A stretch of DNA of 4,487 nt from a virus. Lineage: Duplodnaviria; Heunggongvirae; Uroviricota; Caudoviricetes. Below are positions 1 through 4,487 of this stretch, one piece after another. A program made the position numbers and the translations under genes. Below the pieces are notes generated by a model, which was not told where the DNA came from, ran no database searches, and worked only from the letters and a program-made list of their open reading frames with translations. The stretch lies in the IMG/VR virus record IMGVR_UViG_2671180338_000011; one strand, given 5' to 3'. Positions within the stretch are counted from its first letter, which is position 1. Every line of letters starts with the position of its first letter.

Positions 1-38
1 AAAACACTATCAATAAGTTGGAGTCATTACCCCAATTT

Positions 39-52
39 TTTACGTACGTAAA
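39..52. promoter_or_regulatory. Perfect 14-bp palindrome TTTACGTACGTAAA about 85 bp upstream of the porin start; candidate regulator-binding site
   Basis: Self-complementary sequence read directly. No transcription factor assigned. Confidence 0.25.
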
Positions 53-137
53 CCACTAAATGATATTTGCGAGAATGCTACCTATTTATCGCGCAGTGAC
101 ATCATTTTTTAATAATAGTTCAAAAAAAGGGCTCACG

Positions 138-1220
138 ATGAAAAAATTAACAGTGGCAATTTCTGCTGTAGCTGCATCAGTACTGATGGCGATGTCTGCT
201 CAGGCAGCTGAAATTTATAATAAAGACAGTAACAAGCTGGATCTGTACGGGAAAGTTAATGCTAAGCACTACTTCTCCTCTAATGATGCAGATGATGGTG
301 ATACTACTTATGCCCGTCTTGGCTTCAAAGGTGAAACCCAAATCAACGATCAACTGACTGGTTTCGGTCAGTGGGAATATGAATTCAAAGGCAACCGCGC
401 TGAATCTCAAGGTTCCTCCAAAGATAAAACCCGTCTTGCCTTCGCTGGCCTGAAATTCGGTGACTACGGCTCCATCGATTACGGCCGTAACTACGGTGTA
501 GCATACGACATCGGTGCGTGGACTGACGTCCTGCCAGAATTCGGTGGTGACACTTGGACTCAAACAGATGTGTTCATGACTGGTCGCACCACTGGTGTTG
601 CAACTTATCGTAACAACGACTTCTTTGGTCTGGTTGATGGTCTGAACTTTGCTGCTCAGTATCAGGGTAAAAATGACCGCACTGACGTAACTGAAGCTAA
701 TGGTGATGGTTTCGGTTTCTCCACTACTTATGAGTATGAAGGATTCGGTGTAGGTGCAACCTATGCTAAATCTGACCGCACTAATAATCAGGTTATCTAC
801 GGTAACAACAGCCTGAATGCATCTGGTCAAAATGCTGAAGTATGGGCAGCTGGTCTGAAATATGATGCGAACAACATCTATCTGGCTACCACCTATTCTG
901 AAACCCAGAACATGACTGTTTTTGGTAATAACCATATTGCCAACAAAGCACAAAACTTCGAAGTAGTTGCACAATATCAGTTCGACTTCGGTCTGCGTCC
1001 GTCCGTTGCTTACCTGCAATCTAAAGGAAAAGACTTGGGTGCGTGGGGTGATCAGGACCTGGTTGAATATATTGATGTAGGTGCAACCTATTACTTCAAC
1101 AAAAATATGTCCACTTTTGTTGATTACAAAATCAACCTGATTGATAAGAGCGATTTCACGAAAGCATCTGGCGTTGCTACCGATGATATCGTTGCTGTAG
1201 GTATGGTTTACCAGTTCTAA
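138..1220 (+). CDS. nmpC: Outer-membrane general porin, prophage-encoded NmpC/Lc (OmpD-like), OmpC/OmpF/PhoE family; intact 360-aa precursor
   Basis: ATG at 138 preceded by AAGGG (126-130). Signal peptide [23 protein letters not shown] with AQA-AE cleavage site. Porin L3-loop signature PEFGGD present. C-terminal YQF with terminal Phe typical of beta-barrel OMPs. The ORF-track start at 60 adds 26 residues before the signal peptide and is probably not used. Family assignment from memory, not searched. Confidence 0.9.
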
Positions 1221-1244
1221 TTTGATTACTAAAAGATATGTTGC

Positions 1245-1261
1245 GGGAGGCTTTGCCTCCC
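1245..1261. other. Stem-loop (7-bp stem GGGAGGC/GCCTCCC, 3-nt loop) 25 nt after the porin stop; function unassigned
   Basis: Inverted repeat read directly. No U-tract immediately 3' on the plus strand; on the minus strand a CUUUU run lies 9 nt downstream. Confidence 0.4.
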
Positions 1262-1269
1262 CAACATAT

Positions 1270-1291
1270 AAGTGGCTCCCTCAAGCCACTT
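1270..1291. other. Stem-loop (8-bp stem AAGTGGCT/AGCCACTT, 6-nt loop); function unassigned
   Basis: Inverted repeat read directly; followed on the plus strand by the weakly T-rich TCCTTTAGG. Confidence 0.4.
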
Positions 1292-1356
1292 CCTTTAGGA
1301 GCACAACCTTGCTTCTAACTATATAAACCTTCTGTTATATATTACCCTTTATTTTT

Positions 1357-1390
1357 GGGGGCGTTGCAACGCCCCATTTTTAATAATTTT
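1357..1390 (+). terminator. Candidate intrinsic terminator for plus-strand (porin) transcription
   Basis: Perfect 18-nt GC-rich palindrome GGGGCGTTGCAACGCCCC (1357-1374) followed directly by ATTTTTAATAATTTTT. On the minus strand the hairpin is followed by CAAAAATAAA, so it is not a minus-strand terminator. Confidence 0.55.
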
Positions 1391-1408
1391 TAGTAAACAA
1401 TTGGCATA

Positions 1409-1792
1409 TTAATTAGAGTTATTAACAACGATATCCATCTCTAACCGGATATCTAATGCCATTAACATCCCTTCAATTATGCCCTCAGCCTTCTGTAACC
1501 TTTTCCCGATATAACCATCAGAGCAGCAATGCTTACCTGCCAGTGACATGAATGTCATACCGACTACATAATAATCTACTAATAAATCGTGCAAATCGCT
1601 GTTGTTCTTTTTCAGACGGGCCATGCACCCGCAAATAATCATCGCGTCATCGTCACAACATTGCGGGCGAGATTTTACTTTTGAAGTAATTAATCCCTTA
1701 AAACCGGCGGCAATGGACGACCAGGTCACATCTTCATGATTATTAGCCGCCCACGCTCCCCAACGCTCAAGAACCATCTGAATATCACGCAT
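1409..1792 (-). CDS. quuD: Late-gene antitermination protein Q (DLP12 QuuD-like, 127 aa)
   Basis: ATG at 1792-1790 with GGAG 7 nt upstream on the minus strand. Cys-rich motifs ([20 protein letters not shown]) and size match the short Q proteins of DLP12-type prophages. The ORF-track start at 1807 is a TTG extension. Position directly downstream of rusA/ylcG is the canonical lambdoid layout. Confidence 0.8.
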
Positions 1793-1877
1793 CAACTTAC
1801 TCCACAAAAATCAGACCAGAACGCCAATTACAAGCAAAAATCAACAAAACAGTATTAGTTGATTGTTATCTCTGACT

Positions 1878-2018
1878 TCATACTCCTGCTCCTGTCAGGG
1901 TTTTGGCGTAATTCTTCAGTATTCGGTAATCGGTCAAAACAGAACCGGGGAAACGATATAAGCGCAGATGCCCCCAGCGGTGGCGAAGAAGTTCTGCCAT
2001 ATAAAACTCAAACATCAT
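1878..2018 (-). CDS. ylcG: Small nin-region protein YlcG-like (46 aa), not in the supplied ORF track
   Basis: Hand translation of the minus strand gives [46 protein letters not shown], ending in TGA at 1880-1878. Its ATG overlaps the rusA stop (ATGA). Size and position match DLP12 ylcG between rusA and Q. Confidence 0.6.
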
Positions 2019-2377
2019 TCATTCCCCATTTCGGTGATGGTCAGTTCCAGCCTCCCACCTTTGGTAACAGGCATCTTCACAACGCGGTAATCAACGACCT
2101 GAGCATCATCCAGCCAGAAACCTGCTTTGGTGAGTGCGTCAAAAGCGGCTTTTTGCAGATTATCCAGGTCACGGCGACGGCGATCCGGCATGTGGCACTC
2201 AATACGGATTTTCACTGGCATAGCCAGGCCGATATCCAGCATTGCGTTTTTAATGATTCGGGTGACGTTATCGCGGTATGCCTGCCCTTCTGCGCTGATG
2301 TGTGTGCGCCCGCGATTATGGCGGTAATAGCGGTTATTGCTCGGAGGCCAGGGTAATGTGATGCTGTAGGTATTCAC
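2015..2377 (-). CDS. rusA: Crossover junction endodeoxyribonuclease RusA (Holliday junction resolvase), 120 aa
   Basis: Translation [24 protein letters not shown]...[11 protein letters not shown] closely matches E. coli RusA as I recall it. The start codon read from the sequence is GTG (2377-2375), overlapping the ybcO TGA stop (GTGA). Confidence 0.9.
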
Positions 2378-2664
2378 GCCTTAATAACCCCCTCTTTCAG
2401 CCAGATAACCTGCGTTCTCGCCATACCTTCCAGCGCGCATTCTTTTGCATACTCAGCATCGACAAAATATGTGCGGCGGTCGATTTCGTCGTGACAGGCA
2501 GAACATGCAATGGTGGCAATCAGGTCTGGCGGTTTGATACCGGTACCGCACAATCCAGCCAGCCGGATATGTGCCAGTACTGACGTTTCAGGATTGCCAT
2601 TACATACGCCAGGGATTCTTACCTGGCATTCCCGACCACGCGCTGCTTTTCTCAAATCAGCCAT
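2374..2664 (-). CDS. ybcO: YbcO-like Cys-rich nin-region protein (DUF1364, putative nuclease), 96 aa
   Basis: ATG at 2664-2662 preceded by AGGAGG on the minus strand, giving [23 protein letters not shown]... The ORF-track start at 2703 is a TTG extension. Several Cys/His residues consistent with a zinc-binding fold. Family from memory. Confidence 0.85.
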
Positions 2665-2827
2665 GATTCCTCCTTGCTGCCAGTCGCAACCATTTTTTAT
2701 CAACCAGGCTAGCGGTATATCCGAGCAGTGTTGGTATTTCGGATGGCTTCAGCTCAGGCTTACGCTTACGACGATTTGATACTCTGTAGATGTGCCCGTT
2801 CATGACACGAATAAGCGGTGTAGCCAT
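2657..2827 (-). CDS. ninE: NinE-family small protein (56 aa), not in the supplied ORF track
   Basis: Hand translation of the minus strand from the ATG at 2827-2825 gives [56 protein letters not shown], stop TGA at 2659-2657. The basic C-terminal region resembles lambda NinE. Start overlaps the ybcN stop (TAATG); 3' end overlaps the ybcO start by 8 nt. Confidence 0.7.
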   Translation of the reverse strand: MATPLIRVMNGHIYRVSNRRKRKPELKPSEIPTLLGYTASLVDKKWLRLAARRNHG

Positions 2828-3282
2828 TACGCCTCCTGCTTATCGCGCAGCTGCTGGTATTCACAGCTCTGCGGAATTGTCAGGTGGCAGCCGATATTCA
2901 TCGCCCAGGCTTCGACTTTGCACAGGAAGATGTACATCTCGCCGGTTTCCAGCTCTGACGTATGGCGGAGGGATTGGACGGTGGTGACCTCGCCGGACAC
3001 GACATCTACACGGTCTTTGCTTTCGTAGCCGAGATAGGTGTGCTTCATCGCGTCTTTGACCCACTCAGGCGTAGCGAAGGTCTTGCCGCGGGCGATGAGA
3101 TATTCGCTGATCTCCGTGTACCACATGTGGCTGAGCGCGTTCTGCGACAGGCTGCGCTTCTCGCGCCACGGCTTAACCTGCAGGCGTAAGCATTGCCCGG
3201 CATCCAGCAATGGCTGAATCTGCTGGCCGATGGCCGCGAAGTTACCGCGATGGAGTTTGATGCCGTCTACTGGCAGAGTCAT
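2827..3282 (-). CDS. ybcN: NinB/Orf-family recombination protein (DLP12 YbcN-like), 151 aa
   Basis: ATG at 3282-3280 with GGGAGG 4 nt upstream on the minus strand. The RSLSQNALSHMWYTEIS segment resembles the RSLDQN...LW motif of lambda NinB. First gene of the nin cluster, as in DLP12. Confidence 0.85.
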   Translation of the reverse strand: MTLPVDGIKLHRGNFAAIGQQIQPLLDAGQCLRLQVKPWREKRSLSQNALSHMWYTEISEYLIARGKTFATPEWVKDAMKHTYLGYESKDRVDVVSGEVTTVQSLRHTSELETGEMYIFLCKVEAWAMNIGCHLTIPQSCEYQQLRDKQEA

Positions 3283-3308
3283 ACGGCCTCCCTAACGGAA
3301 ACCGCAGA

Positions 3309-3338
3309 ATGCAGAAAATCGCAGGTGCATTTCTGCAT
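3309..3338. promoter_or_regulatory. Inverted repeat with 9-bp arms ATGCAGAAA/TTTCTGCAT and 12-bp spacer, 27-56 nt upstream of the ybcN start; candidate operator or leader RNA structure
   Basis: Perfect arm complementarity read directly. Lies in the divergent intergenic region between ybcN and the AT-rich cassette. Confidence 0.3.
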
Positions 3339-3369
3339 CTGTGACAAGGTGATGAGTTCAGATTGTGGT

Positions 3370-3393
3370 CGCATTTAAGTCCCCTTAAATGCG
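3370..3393. other. Strong stem-loop: 10-bp perfect stem CGCATTTAAG/CTTAAATGCG with 4-nt loop; function unassigned
   Basis: Read directly. No U-tract on either side, so not a canonical intrinsic terminator. Sits just before the GC-to-AT composition shift. Confidence 0.35.
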
Positions 3394-3502
3394 CAGAAGT
3401 CACCGGAGTTGTTCAGGCTCCGATGAGAGGATTATGGCGGATTGATTACGATAAATCAAAACTATCTTGAAGCCAAAACAGTGATCTTCGCTTTAAAAAC
3501 CT

Positions 3503-3510
3503 TGTATACT
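3503..3510 (+). promoter_or_regulatory. Candidate extended -10 element (TGTATACT) for the AT-rich cassette
   Basis: TATACT hexamer with TG immediately upstream, about 37 nt before the ATG at 3547. No convincing -35 hexamer at 17-bp spacing; AT-rich upstream sequence could act as an UP element. Inferred only. Confidence 0.3.
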
Positions 3511-3546
3511 TTCACCTAATCACAGCCAGAACTATGGATCTAACCA

Positions 3547-3924
3547 ATGACCAACAAAGAAAACAAAGATAAATATATTAACAAGTTCAAGAAAGAGCTT
3601 TCAAAATATATACAACCAACTGCTGGAGTGGACATTCAATTATTTAACTCTAAGGATGGTGGTGGTGTAATTAAAGCCACTTTGAATAGAAGTGGAAAAA
3701 GAAAATCATCTATTGCTGGTAATTTTACTAAATTAGGTGAGGCAATTACCTCGAGTGGGCAGAGGGTTTTTGGTGGTGATCTATCAAATGTGAATTTTTA
3801 CGGAACAAATACGATTTTTGATGGAGATACAATATTTTTAATTAAATCACCTGATTCAGAGGAGTGGTCATCACAAAAAGCTTCCAAAGACGTAGAGGGC
3901 ATCGTATTTGGAGGGAAAAAATGA
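3547..3924 (+). CDS. Hypothetical protein, 125 aa, Lys/Gly-rich, no signal peptide or TM segment, family not recognised; first gene of AT-rich cassette
   Basis: ORF with in-frame TAA two codons upstream of the ATG. Weak RBS (GGAT). About 30% GC by eye. Stop TGA overlaps the downstream ATG (ATGA). No conserved motif I can name. Confidence 0.6.
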   Translation: MTNKENKDKYINKFKKELSKYIQPTAGVDIQLFNSKDGGGVIKATLNRSGKRKSSIAGNFTKLGEAITSSGQRVFGGDLSNVNFYGTNTIFDGDTIFLIKSPDSEEWSSQKASKDVEGIVFGGKK

Positions 3925-4349
3925 TTAACATTACTACTAAGGATGGCACTCAAGTCAGTGGTGAAGTAAGAGATCTAGTAATTCTTCTTGAAACTGATGG
4001 AAAAACGGTGTCTGATTATTTGCAGCCAATCCCTCCCAAAAAAGATACACACTGGAGCATGATTTTCATTCCGGTAGCAATTTATATACTACTTAATCTT
4101 GTATACATTATTGCTCACCCATTATTTCCTGAAAAATATCTAAAAACATCAACATCTATATTTCTATTCATTTCCTTCATATTAAGTGCAATAGTAGCAT
4201 ATTTTGTTTTCCATAAGCATAAATCTGCCACTCTATCCATATGCAGCTTAGTGTTCTTAGTGTTAATTGTAGGTGCTAACGTAGGGTTTATCAGTTACAG
4301 CGACCTAACACAAAAAGCGACGCAAAAATTAGATAGTTTGTCTAAATAA
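3921..4349 (+). CDS. Hypothetical small membrane protein, 142 aa: about 44-aa N-terminal soluble region followed by three predicted transmembrane helices; family not recognised
   Basis: ATG at 3921 preceded by GGAGGG (3910-3915). Hydrophobic stretches WSMIFIPVAIYILLNLVYIIAHPLF, IFLFISFILSAIVAYFVF and LSICSLVFLVLIVGANVGFI separated by short Lys/His-containing loops. The ORF-track start at 3864 is a GTG extension overlapping the upstream gene in another frame. Confidence 0.65.
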   Translation: MINITTKDGTQVSGEVRDLVILLETDGKTVSDYLQPIPPKKDTHWSMIFIPVAIYILLNLVYIIAHPLFPEKYLKTSTSIFLFISFILSAIVAYFVFHKHKSATLSICSLVFLVLIVGANVGFISYSDLTQKATQKLDSLSK

Positions 4350-4356
4350 TTATGTT

Positions 4357-4377
4357 GCCATGCGAAGTATGCATGGC
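4357..4377 (+). other. Stem-loop (7-bp stem GCCATGC/GCATGGC, 7-nt loop) 8 nt after the cassette stop; possible transcript-end structure
   Basis: Read directly; no U-tract immediately downstream, so terminator function is uncertain. Confidence 0.3.
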
Positions 4378-4487
4378 TGCATGTCTGCCTTCCATTTAAA
4401 ATGGGCTAAGACCTATAACCCTAAATATTATTCTTTATTATCTTCTTTACCACTTCGGTGATGCTGCCAACTTACTGATTTAGTGTA

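Follow-up and report, generated by a model that had tools for sequence, protein, structure and literature searches.

The virus record IMGVR_UViG_2671180338_000011 (Caudoviricetes) comprises 4,487 nt of DNA, hereafter referred to as the window, and represents a segment of a lambdoid prophage of the DLP12/phage-82 type. Between ybcN, the first long gene of its nin operon, and a cassette of two genes on the opposite strand lie 264 bp (3283-3546) with two perfect inverted repeats, and the locus raises the question of what function these repeats serve. A prior reading of the sequence alone took the whole region as intergenic and considered the repeats more likely to be protein-binding sites or RNA leader structures than terminators, with a possible role in regulating the entry of early-right transcription into the nin genes or in insulating the cassette from phage transcription. 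The comparative evidence presented here places the repeats in a conserved leader RNA with four hairpins, which probably gates the expression of the nin genes in many lambda-like prophages.

The inverted repeats are part of the prophage backbone

Both repeats are present as the sequence-only reading described them, the one with arms at 3309-3317 and 3330-3338 (9 nt, 100% match, 12-nt spacer) and the other with arms at 3370-3379 and 3384-3393 (10 nt, 100% match, 4-nt loop). In 500 dinucleotide shuffles of positions 3283-3546, perfect repeats with arms of at least 9 nt and a loop of 3-20 nt were found at a mean of 0.022, and the probability of two or more was 0.002. A third, imperfect repeat, TCATCGGAG-N9-CTCCGGTGA, which the sequence-only reading did not list, is located at 3400-3426.

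The sequence-only reading had proposed a comparison with DLP12 and other lambdoid prophages as a means of establishing whether the repeats belong to the backbone or arrived with the insert. Megablast and blastn searches identified similarity that runs from ybcN through both repeats and ends at approximately 3461, just beyond the -35 element of a putative promoter, in DLP12, in thousands of E. coli prophages and in the isolated phages 82, phi80, HK225, HK639 and CobraSix, all five of which carry the leader. The repeats are therefore part of the prophage backbone rather than of the insert. The region is matched in 2778 of 5426 complete E. coli genomes, and the cassette beyond ~3461 adjoins the leader sequence in just 46 genomes.

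Anatomy of the leader RNA

The minus strand of the window is the sense strand of ybcN, and the 161-nt leader RNA folds at -56.9 kcal/mol (z = -4.4 relative to shuffled sequences). The following elements are distinguished:

3454-3459, minus strand: -35-like hexamer TTGATT, from the promoter scan and the phage 82 annotation; left half of a palindrome
3431-3436, minus strand: -10-like hexamer CATAAT, from the promoter scan and the phage 82 annotation; predicted start ~7 nt downstream
3400-3426, minus strand: hairpin A, UCAUCGGAG / CCUGAACAA / CUCCGGUGA, with CCUGAACAA as loop
3370-3393, minus strand: hairpin B, CGCAUUUAAG GGGA CUUAAAUGCG, the 10-bp hairpin of the sequence-only reading
3279-3374, minus strand: leader open reading frame (ORF) of 31 codons, ylcH/phage 82 orf33 family, its stop overlapping the ybcN start (ATGA)
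3319-3344, minus strand: hairpin C, UCACAGAUGCA GAAA UGCACCUGCGA, within the leader ORF, with two conserved A·C mismatches
3311-3318, minus strand: U-rich tract UUUUCUGC, directly 3′ of hairpin C; UUUUUUU in phage 82
3309-3338, minus strand: the earlier 9-bp repeat with 12-nt spacer, AUGCAGAAA...UUUCUGCAU, overlapping hairpin C (5′ arm and loop) as well as the U-rich tract
3282-3306, minus strand: hairpin D, UGCGGUUUCC GUUAG GGAGGCCGUA, from the minimum free energy (MFE) fold and covariation

As such, the 264 bp are intergenic only in part, given that the leader ORF occupies the minus strand from 3374 up to and over the start of ybcN.

Single-sequence folds of ~88 variants of hairpin A recover the hairpin nearly every time and show a variable stem, of more than 25 kinds, which for most variants has a stability of -12 to -18 kcal/mol and carries a nearly invariant loop core, UGAACA, with its closing G-C pair. 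In Franconibacter/Pseudescherichia-type sequences (L098, L104 and L286-L290), hairpin A is represented by three tandem short hairpins with a 19-nt period, situated directly after the -10 hexamer and ~60-110 nt upstream of the leader AUG, each copy with a loop of the (C/U)CUGAACA type. Hairpin B presents a Shine-Dalgarno (SD)-like GGGGA in its loop and holds the AUG of the leader ORF (3374-3372) in its 3′ arm. Nearly all of its 68 unique segments, which include ~20 different stems, fold in single-sequence MFE predictions as a hairpin of 10-13 bp with a purine-rich SD in the loop and an AUG or GUG in the 3′ arm, at -12 to -21 and typically -13 to -18 kcal/mol.

The stretch that separates hairpins B and C is C-rich and G-poor. 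Hairpin C itself has a covarying stem of 9-11 bp (median ΔG -8.5 kcal/mol). Its two A·C mismatches occupy fixed positions even where the overlapping codons differ between lineages, which suggests a deliberately weakened or protonation-sensitive stem. Hairpin D sequesters the SD of ybcN, GGAGG (3287-3291), together with the first base of the ybcN AUG (3282-3280), and in its K-12-type version reads CCUC-UNCG-GAGG.

Covariation in the ybcN sense strand

Approximately 340 loci encoding YbcN relatives were collected from viral and genome collections and yielded 199 unique upstream sequences. A covariance model was built from 30 close sequences, 101 matches were aligned to it and 100 distinct rows were scored. 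In this alignment (A3), the fitting of which to the model structure inflates the pairing counts, 97.4% of the cells of the four helices are paired, compared to 76.4% in shuffled alignments and 31-40% in slid controls. The covariation score is 0.477 against 0.141, a value reached by 0/500 shuffles. Double-sided changes occur in 36/38 pairs and support all four helices: 8/9 pairs in helix 1 (hairpin A; 95.5% paired), 10/10 in helix 2 (hairpin B; 97.4%), 9/9 in helix 3 (hairpin C; 99%) and 9/10 in helix 4 (hairpin D; 97.7%). Hairpin C was furthermore recovered independently, with compensatory changes, by RNAalifold on a plain MAFFT alignment (AU 88 / CG 11 / UA 9, and similar).

The imperfect pairs also reveal the strand on which the structure acts. 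Among non-Watson-Crick pairs on the ybcN sense strand, 382 are G·U and 35 are A·C, which indicates an RNA (or single strands) of this strand rather than an operator in duplex DNA. Neither conserved half-sites nor strand-unbiased mismatches, as would characterize a palindromic DNA operator, are observed. The suggestion that the repeats are protein-binding DNA sites is thus not supported, as pairing persists although the sequence of the arms is free to change, and the mismatches are G·U on one strand.

The suggestion that they are RNA leader structures is supported for the repeat at 3370-3393, which is hairpin B and covaries through its ~20 stem versions, in all of which the loop carries the SD and the 3′ arm the start codon. 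This support does not extend to the repeat at 3309-3338. The left arm of the latter consists of the 5′ arm of hairpin C plus its GAAA loop, and the right arm is the U-tract. In the four-helix alignment the corresponding helix is paired in 84.5% of cells against 83.7% when shuffled, with a covariation score of 0.110 against 0.105 that is at least equalled by 86/500 shuffles; at 6/9 pairs, 12-33% of cells are unpaired. Loop variants of hairpin C (such as AUGCUUAGC or AUGGCGUCC) abolish this pairing without compensation. The pairing is chosen in the single-sequence MFE fold and is possible as an alternative fold in the commonest sequence type only. As covariation is absent, the helix was rejected as a conserved structure and, as drawn, may be incidental.

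A leader ORF overlapping the first nin gene

An overlap of the [A/G]TGA or TTGA type with the downstream start is kept in 166/199 unique upstream sequences, and 157 of these 166 have an in-frame start preceded by an SD, opening ORFs of 31-42 codons (31-33 codons in 153). The arrangement with the SD in the loop and the start in the stem, together with the overlap, is retained across very different N-terminal halves and across ORFs of 31-36 codons. The locus thus displays two of the features that are looked for in translational coupling, namely a small upstream ORF with its own SD and start and a stop that overlaps the start of the main gene, and a ribosome-binding site (RBS) of the main gene that is sequestered, here by the pairing of hairpin D with the GGAGG of ybcN.

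A pattern scan with hairpin A and the linker showed that this leader, ORF included, is also coupled through ATGA/GTGA to NinB/Orf genes of the lambda type and in one case to a Q-like zinc-finger protein. The occurrence of one leader before first genes other than ybcN indicates a general nin-operon leader. Two contigs contain two copies each. In L463 (6847-7003 and 10950-11106), one copy is directly coupled to the Q-like zinc-finger protein, and in L081 (111-261 and 1353-1503) the upstream copy is followed by unrelated DNA. A further ~34 pattern matches all represent a single homologous site, antisense to an ORF of the kil region, with neither stem nor leader ORF, and were judged a chance resemblance. 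This match, CTGAACA...GACTTCTGCGC, is found at 514-537 of contig L352, ~7.6 kb from the nin leader, and in ~33 other viral contigs.

A promoter-like element at the module boundary

The hexamers TTGATT and CATAAT, separated by 17 nt, match 9/12 positions of the sigma-70 consensus in the window. Among 156 related sequences, the match is at least 8/12 in 137, TTGATT is the best -35 match in 108, and 142 have a 17-nt spacer, so that conserved hexamers at sigma-70 spacing (16-18 nt) are found. The -10 variants CATAAT, CATACT, TATAAT and GATAAT all retain A2 and T6, and the distance from the -10 hexamer to the loop of hairpin A is 15-16 nt in 120/156 sequences. As the predicted transcription start falls within the 5′ arm of hairpin A, a transcript from this promoter would open with A as its 5′-terminal stem-loop.

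The backbone homology ends just upstream of the -35 hexamer. Many relatives carry a canonical intrinsic terminator immediately upstream of it (for example GGCCTC TCCG GAGGCC TTTCTCTT at 289-304 of L234), which suggests that the leader begins a fresh transcription unit there. The -35 region forms part of a perfect palindrome, TTGATT-N6-AATCAA (3442-3459), which is conserved in many relatives and could be a true DNA operator or serve a divergent promoter. Phage 82 has a promoter-like match on the strand opposite to that of the leader promoter.

Terminator-like signals and RNA ends

The sequence-only reading had argued against terminators on the grounds that neither repeat has a flanking U-tract. 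This is correct for the repeats as drawn, but the right arm of the repeat at 3309-3338 is itself the U-tract that follows the nested hairpin C (3319-3344). The exclusion of terminators is therefore doubtful: although the helix at 3309-3338 does not covary, it overlies a covarying hairpin and a conserved U-tract, which a terminator scan flagged not only in the window but also in phage 82 and L234. Five to six U residues occur in the 8 nt after hairpin C in 88/100 distinct sequences, despite residue changes in the leader peptide (F to S, I, V or L). The combination has the stem-loop and U-tract of an intrinsic terminator, with a stem weakened by the two conserved A·C mismatches, and is best described as a terminator- or attenuator-like signal. 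Within the 31-codon ORF, codons 11-19 fall in hairpin C and codons 19-21 in the U-tract, so that the ORF spans the terminator-like signal in the manner of pyrBI. Hairpins A, B and D lack U-tracts.

Term-seq of E. coli K-12 detected RNA 3′ ends at 572349/572350 on the plus strand at low read numbers of ~1600-1860 (Adams et al. 2021, PMC7815308). These positions, quoted as ...GUCACCGGAGCCUGAACAACUCCGGUGACUUCUG^, are homologous to ~3395-3394 on the minus strand of the window and lie 5-6 nt past the hairpin A homologue and 19 nt before the AUG of ylcH. The hairpin A tail is only UUCUG in K-12 and is not U-rich in many variants, and hairpin A was not flagged by the terminator scan.

A model for the control of the nin operon

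We propose, with a probability of roughly 0.6, that the leader functions as a leader-ORF-gated device of translational coupling and attenuation for the nin operon (ybcN-ninE-ybcO-rusA-ylcG-Q). The leader would be transcribed from the sigma-70-type promoter at the module boundary and/or by early-right read-through. Hairpin B would lock the start codon of the leader ORF while showing the SD in its loop, and would in this way control leader initiation, presumably in response to a physiological signal. Ribosomes on the leader ORF would open hairpin D and initiate anew at the ATGA overlap, and only then would ybcN be translated. The leader-translating ribosome would furthermore prevent the folding of hairpin C and shield the C-rich, G-poor stretch, onto which Rho could otherwise load; with hairpin C blocked and the C-rich RNA covered, transcription would proceed into the operon. 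Where the leader is not translated, transcripts would end prematurely. N-modified polymerase from the early-right promoter would be expected to ignore the terminators and still to need the coupling for translation of ybcN. Control of entry into the nin genes, one of the two roles considered by the sequence-only reading, is plausible under this model, while no evidence was found for the other, insulation of the cassette by the repeats.

The nin region leads to the late activator Q and holds the terminators that make lambda growth N-dependent, and whatever gates it thus affects the timing of prophage induction, including that of Stx-type and other E. coli prophages. In DLP12, adequate expression of rusA and ybcN depends on an inserted promoter (PMC4118853), a requirement that the leader may help to explain. 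The leader would also provide a compact and testable example of start-codon sequestration, an internal terminator-like hairpin and RBS unmasking combined in one leader ORF.

The data establish the anatomy of the leader, its conservation and covariation, the strand and, for K-12, an RNA 3′ end past hairpin A in vivo, whereas the activity of the promoter, translation of the leader, the coupling, the attenuation and the physiological signal are inferred. Several observations weigh against this proposal. No direct evidence for translation of the leader ORF was found; the ribosome-profiling texts and supplements searched contain no entry for ylcH, and the leader peptide is poorly conserved. A second frame is also open for at least 31 codons in 129/166 sequences, which makes the open frame a weak and uninformative test of coding. 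No transcription start site for the leader was found in the published start-site supplements searched, the tables of which are possibly incomplete, and promoter activity is as such only predicted. The K-12 Term-seq tables (PMC7815308) contain no 3′ end at the hairpin C U-tract (57241x-57244x), although this is not decisive given the weaker K-12 version of the hairpin (AAUUCUUUG) and the low expression. The 3′ end that is observed follows hairpin A, which has no good U-tract, and termination or processing may thus take place earlier than the model emphasizes. At -13 to -18 kcal/mol, hairpin B is stable enough for a near-complete block of initiation, and no factor that opens it was found. The inflation of the pairing counts in alignment A3 is mitigated by RNAalifold on the plain alignment and by the single-sequence folds of hairpins A and B, which are unfitted. 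Finally, the invariant loop of hairpin A is left unexplained by a model centred on the leader ORF.

Alternative explanations

The last of these points raises the tentative possibility that hairpin A is a dedicated recognition element, in which the leader begins with one to three tandem copies of the invariant UGAACA loop, each on a covarying stem. Its reader might then be an RNA-binding protein of host or phage, a kissing RNA or, in the manner of put, RNA polymerase itself, an idea that we put forward just as tentatively. If so, the factor bound by hairpin A would decide on both transcription and translation into the nin genes and Q, and would give a large group of lambdoid phages an N-independent control point on the path to late gene expression. 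The arginine-rich NinE was considered as the binder, a candidacy weakened by lambda, which has NinE but only tR2 at this position. In the prophage regions examined, no phage-encoded sequence is complementary to the loop of hairpin A apart from the opposite strand of that very site.

The hairpins could also be plain terminators or 3′-end protectors, equivalent to tR2, that stop unmodified early-right transcription or transcription from an upstream moron, with the ORF and the promoter being incidental. The position of lambda tR2, which is exactly the same, the K-12 RNA ends just past hairpin A, the terminator-like hairpin C with its U-tract and the open second frame are all compatible with this explanation. 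We nevertheless regard it as unlikely, since many related loci already have a canonical terminator directly upstream of the -35 hexamer, three of the four hairpins have no U-tract, and the promoter hexamers and their spacing are conserved with functional turnover. Plain termination furthermore leaves unexplained the SD/AUG geometry of hairpin B, the sequestration of an SD by hairpin D and the ATGA/GTGA overlap.

A trans-acting small RNA gene, made up of the promoter, hairpins A-C and the U-tract (~125 nt) or ending after hairpin A (~31-37 nt), would likewise account for a promoter-like signal of its own followed by a terminator-like hairpin with a U-tail, and for the short RNA 3′ ends in K-12. 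The YUNR-type loop of hairpin A, invariant, single-stranded, with a CUGA U-turn motif and carried on variable stems, would then act as the seed for pairing, with the downstream coupling as a secondary feature. Both the gene and such a role for the loop appear improbable to us. The loop complement was not found in the prophage regions examined, ylcH is absent from the RIL-seq-derived and CLASH supplements searched, and there is no Rfam match; in addition, the element is always fused in frame to the downstream gene and its U-tail is short. The known prophage small RNAs AgvB/AsxR, the Pas small RNAs and STnc100 lie elsewhere on the prophage map or are not near the leader.

Repression of a nin-region promoter by a dimeric regulator bound to the repeats as palindromic DNA operators would fit the location of hairpin A, at ~+1 to +27 of the predicted promoter, and the label of 'possible regulator-binding site' that it bears in phage 82. 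The pattern of variation makes this highly improbable: half-sites vary widely and yet stay paired (hairpin A has more than 25 stems and hairpin B ~20), the arms of hairpins A-D change freely while the central loop of hairpin A is constant, which is the reverse of what an operator would show, and the imperfections are G·U rather than A·C on one strand. Hairpin B, moreover, always has the SD and the start codon, and hairpin A is multiplied in some lineages as short independent hairpins. If a true operator exists here, the palindrome TTGATT-N6-AATCAA at the -35 hexamer could be it. That the repeats are functionless chance palindromes can practically be dismissed, since, although short palindromes do arise by chance and the porin gene of the window has one more perfect 10-bp repeat, two such repeats in 264 nt have a probability of only 0.002, and hairpin B, for which chance is refuted, and the hairpin nested in 3309-3338 are strongly conserved and covary.

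Comparison with known systems

The terminator tR2 of lambda, located in the ren-ninB intergenic region and removed by nin5, has the same map position as the leader, directly upstream of a first nin gene of the Orf/NinB family. Each of the two has RNA hairpins of a terminator-like kind, which would be expected to restrict transcription toward Q in the absence of N. Lambda, however, has a single canonical GC-rich hairpin with a U-run followed by the ninB RBS, and lacks the promoter-like element, the leader ORF and hairpins A, B and D; the leader covariance model has no match in lambda.

In the translation-coupled attenuator of E. coli pyrBI (pyrL), a closely following ribosome prevents the formation of the terminator. 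Both pyrBI and the nin leader have a short leader ORF that spans a terminator hairpin and U-tract. The nin leader differs in that neither a UTP-sensitive pause region nor any other pause element or signal was identified, a stable hairpin locks its start codon, the end of its ORF overlaps the start of the first structural gene, and termination at hairpin C is undocumented in the K-12 Term-seq data. In uof-fur, a small upstream ORF has its stop next to the main gene start or overlapping it; the RBS of the main gene is structured, and translation of this gene is expected to depend on that of the upstream ORF. The nin leader resembles this system in its upstream ORF stop over the main gene start and its structured RBS, and differs from it in the absence of a known small RNA or regulator acting on the leader ORF and in the extra conserved hairpins A and C.

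Hairpin A shares with boxB of the lambda and P22 nut sites its form, a short hairpin just past a promoter with a constant loop on a variable stem, and its setting in an early operon subject to antitermination. Its purine-rich loop (GAACA, GAGCA, GGACA) also fits the G-N-R-(N)-A pattern of boxB. Its loop of 7-9 nt is not a pentaloop on a 5-bp stem, however, and it has no boxA. The nutL core of phi80, CACGUAAACGUG, is unlike hairpin A, and the nin-leader module recombines independently of the N/immunity region. An identity with nut/boxB was rejected, given the lack of boxA, the different phi80 nutL and the absence of a second hairpin A copy in four prophage regions (including phi80 and ETEC1747). 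The leader also recalls the put RNA of HK022, with two stem-loops of ~65-70 nt in total immediately past a promoter in a lambdoid early operon. The put stems are one nucleotide apart and have no ribosome-binding site (PMC9378689), whereas the linker in the nin leader measures 6-10 nt and the second hairpin has an SD and start codon, a distinction drawn from description rather than from sequence comparison. Phage HK639 also carries the nin leader.

Individual elements of the leader have already been noted as DNA features in two GenBank records. The phage 82 record (X92588) annotates orf33, its RBS, the putative -35 and -10 hexamers and, at hairpin A, the 'possible regulator-binding site', and the phi80 record (JX871397) annotates hairpin B as 'IR4'. 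These records list the features without a function; hairpins C and D go undescribed in them, as do the covariation at the RNA level, the sequestering of the start codon and the presence of the leader before other first genes. The leader ORF is annotated in K-12 (ylcH), phage 82 (orf33) and strain F11, and the leader is unannotated in most phage records examined. A cmscan of the whole window against Rfam 15 (E ≤ 1) gave 0 matches, and no earlier account was found of an RNA with these four covarying helices, of the sequestered start codon or of the coupling. Under the proposed model, the leader would join the cis-regulatory leaders of the leader-ORF/attenuator type.

Genomic setting and the adjacent cassette

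The genes around the leader are arranged as follows:

2827-3282, minus strand: ybcN, encoding a recombination mediator of the Orf/NinB family, first long gene of the nin operon
minus strand: quuD (Q), ylcG, rusA, ybcO, ninE and ybcN
plus strand: porin gene

The ybcN product matches PF05772 NinB (E = 3.6e-5). The cassette comprises two plus-strand ORFs of low GC content (33-36%), at 3547-3924 and 3921-4349, the products of which are a soluble protein of 125 amino acids and a protein of 142 amino acids with three hydrophobic segments. These match PHROG 18061 and 16940, both of which are PHROGs of unknown function, and received no Pfam or PADLOC assignment. The cassette lies on the strand opposite to that of the nin leader and is flanked by this leader and the replication gene P, in the manner of a moron, and is rare (46/5426 E. 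coli genomes). Its placement between P and ybcN in the intact relatives ETEC1747 and F11 indicates that early-right transcription runs from right to left in window coordinates. The sequence-only reading had placed a cassette promoter beside the repeats. No convincing one was found in 3461-3546, where no plus-strand site passes the promoter scan, and the sole plus-strand promoter-like site sits within the first cassette ORF, at 3578-3607.

Homology to other E. coli prophages (H71) spans exactly 32 to 4457, and the flanks at 1-31 and 4458-4487 are what we take to be two ends of the insertion sequence IS1 in direct orientation. In the related strain CV839-06, IS1 lies in the first cassette ORF instead. 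The porin coding sequence contains the only other perfect inverted repeat of such size in the window, with 10-bp arms at 1096-1123 (TCAACAAAAG...CTTTTGTTGA on the minus strand).

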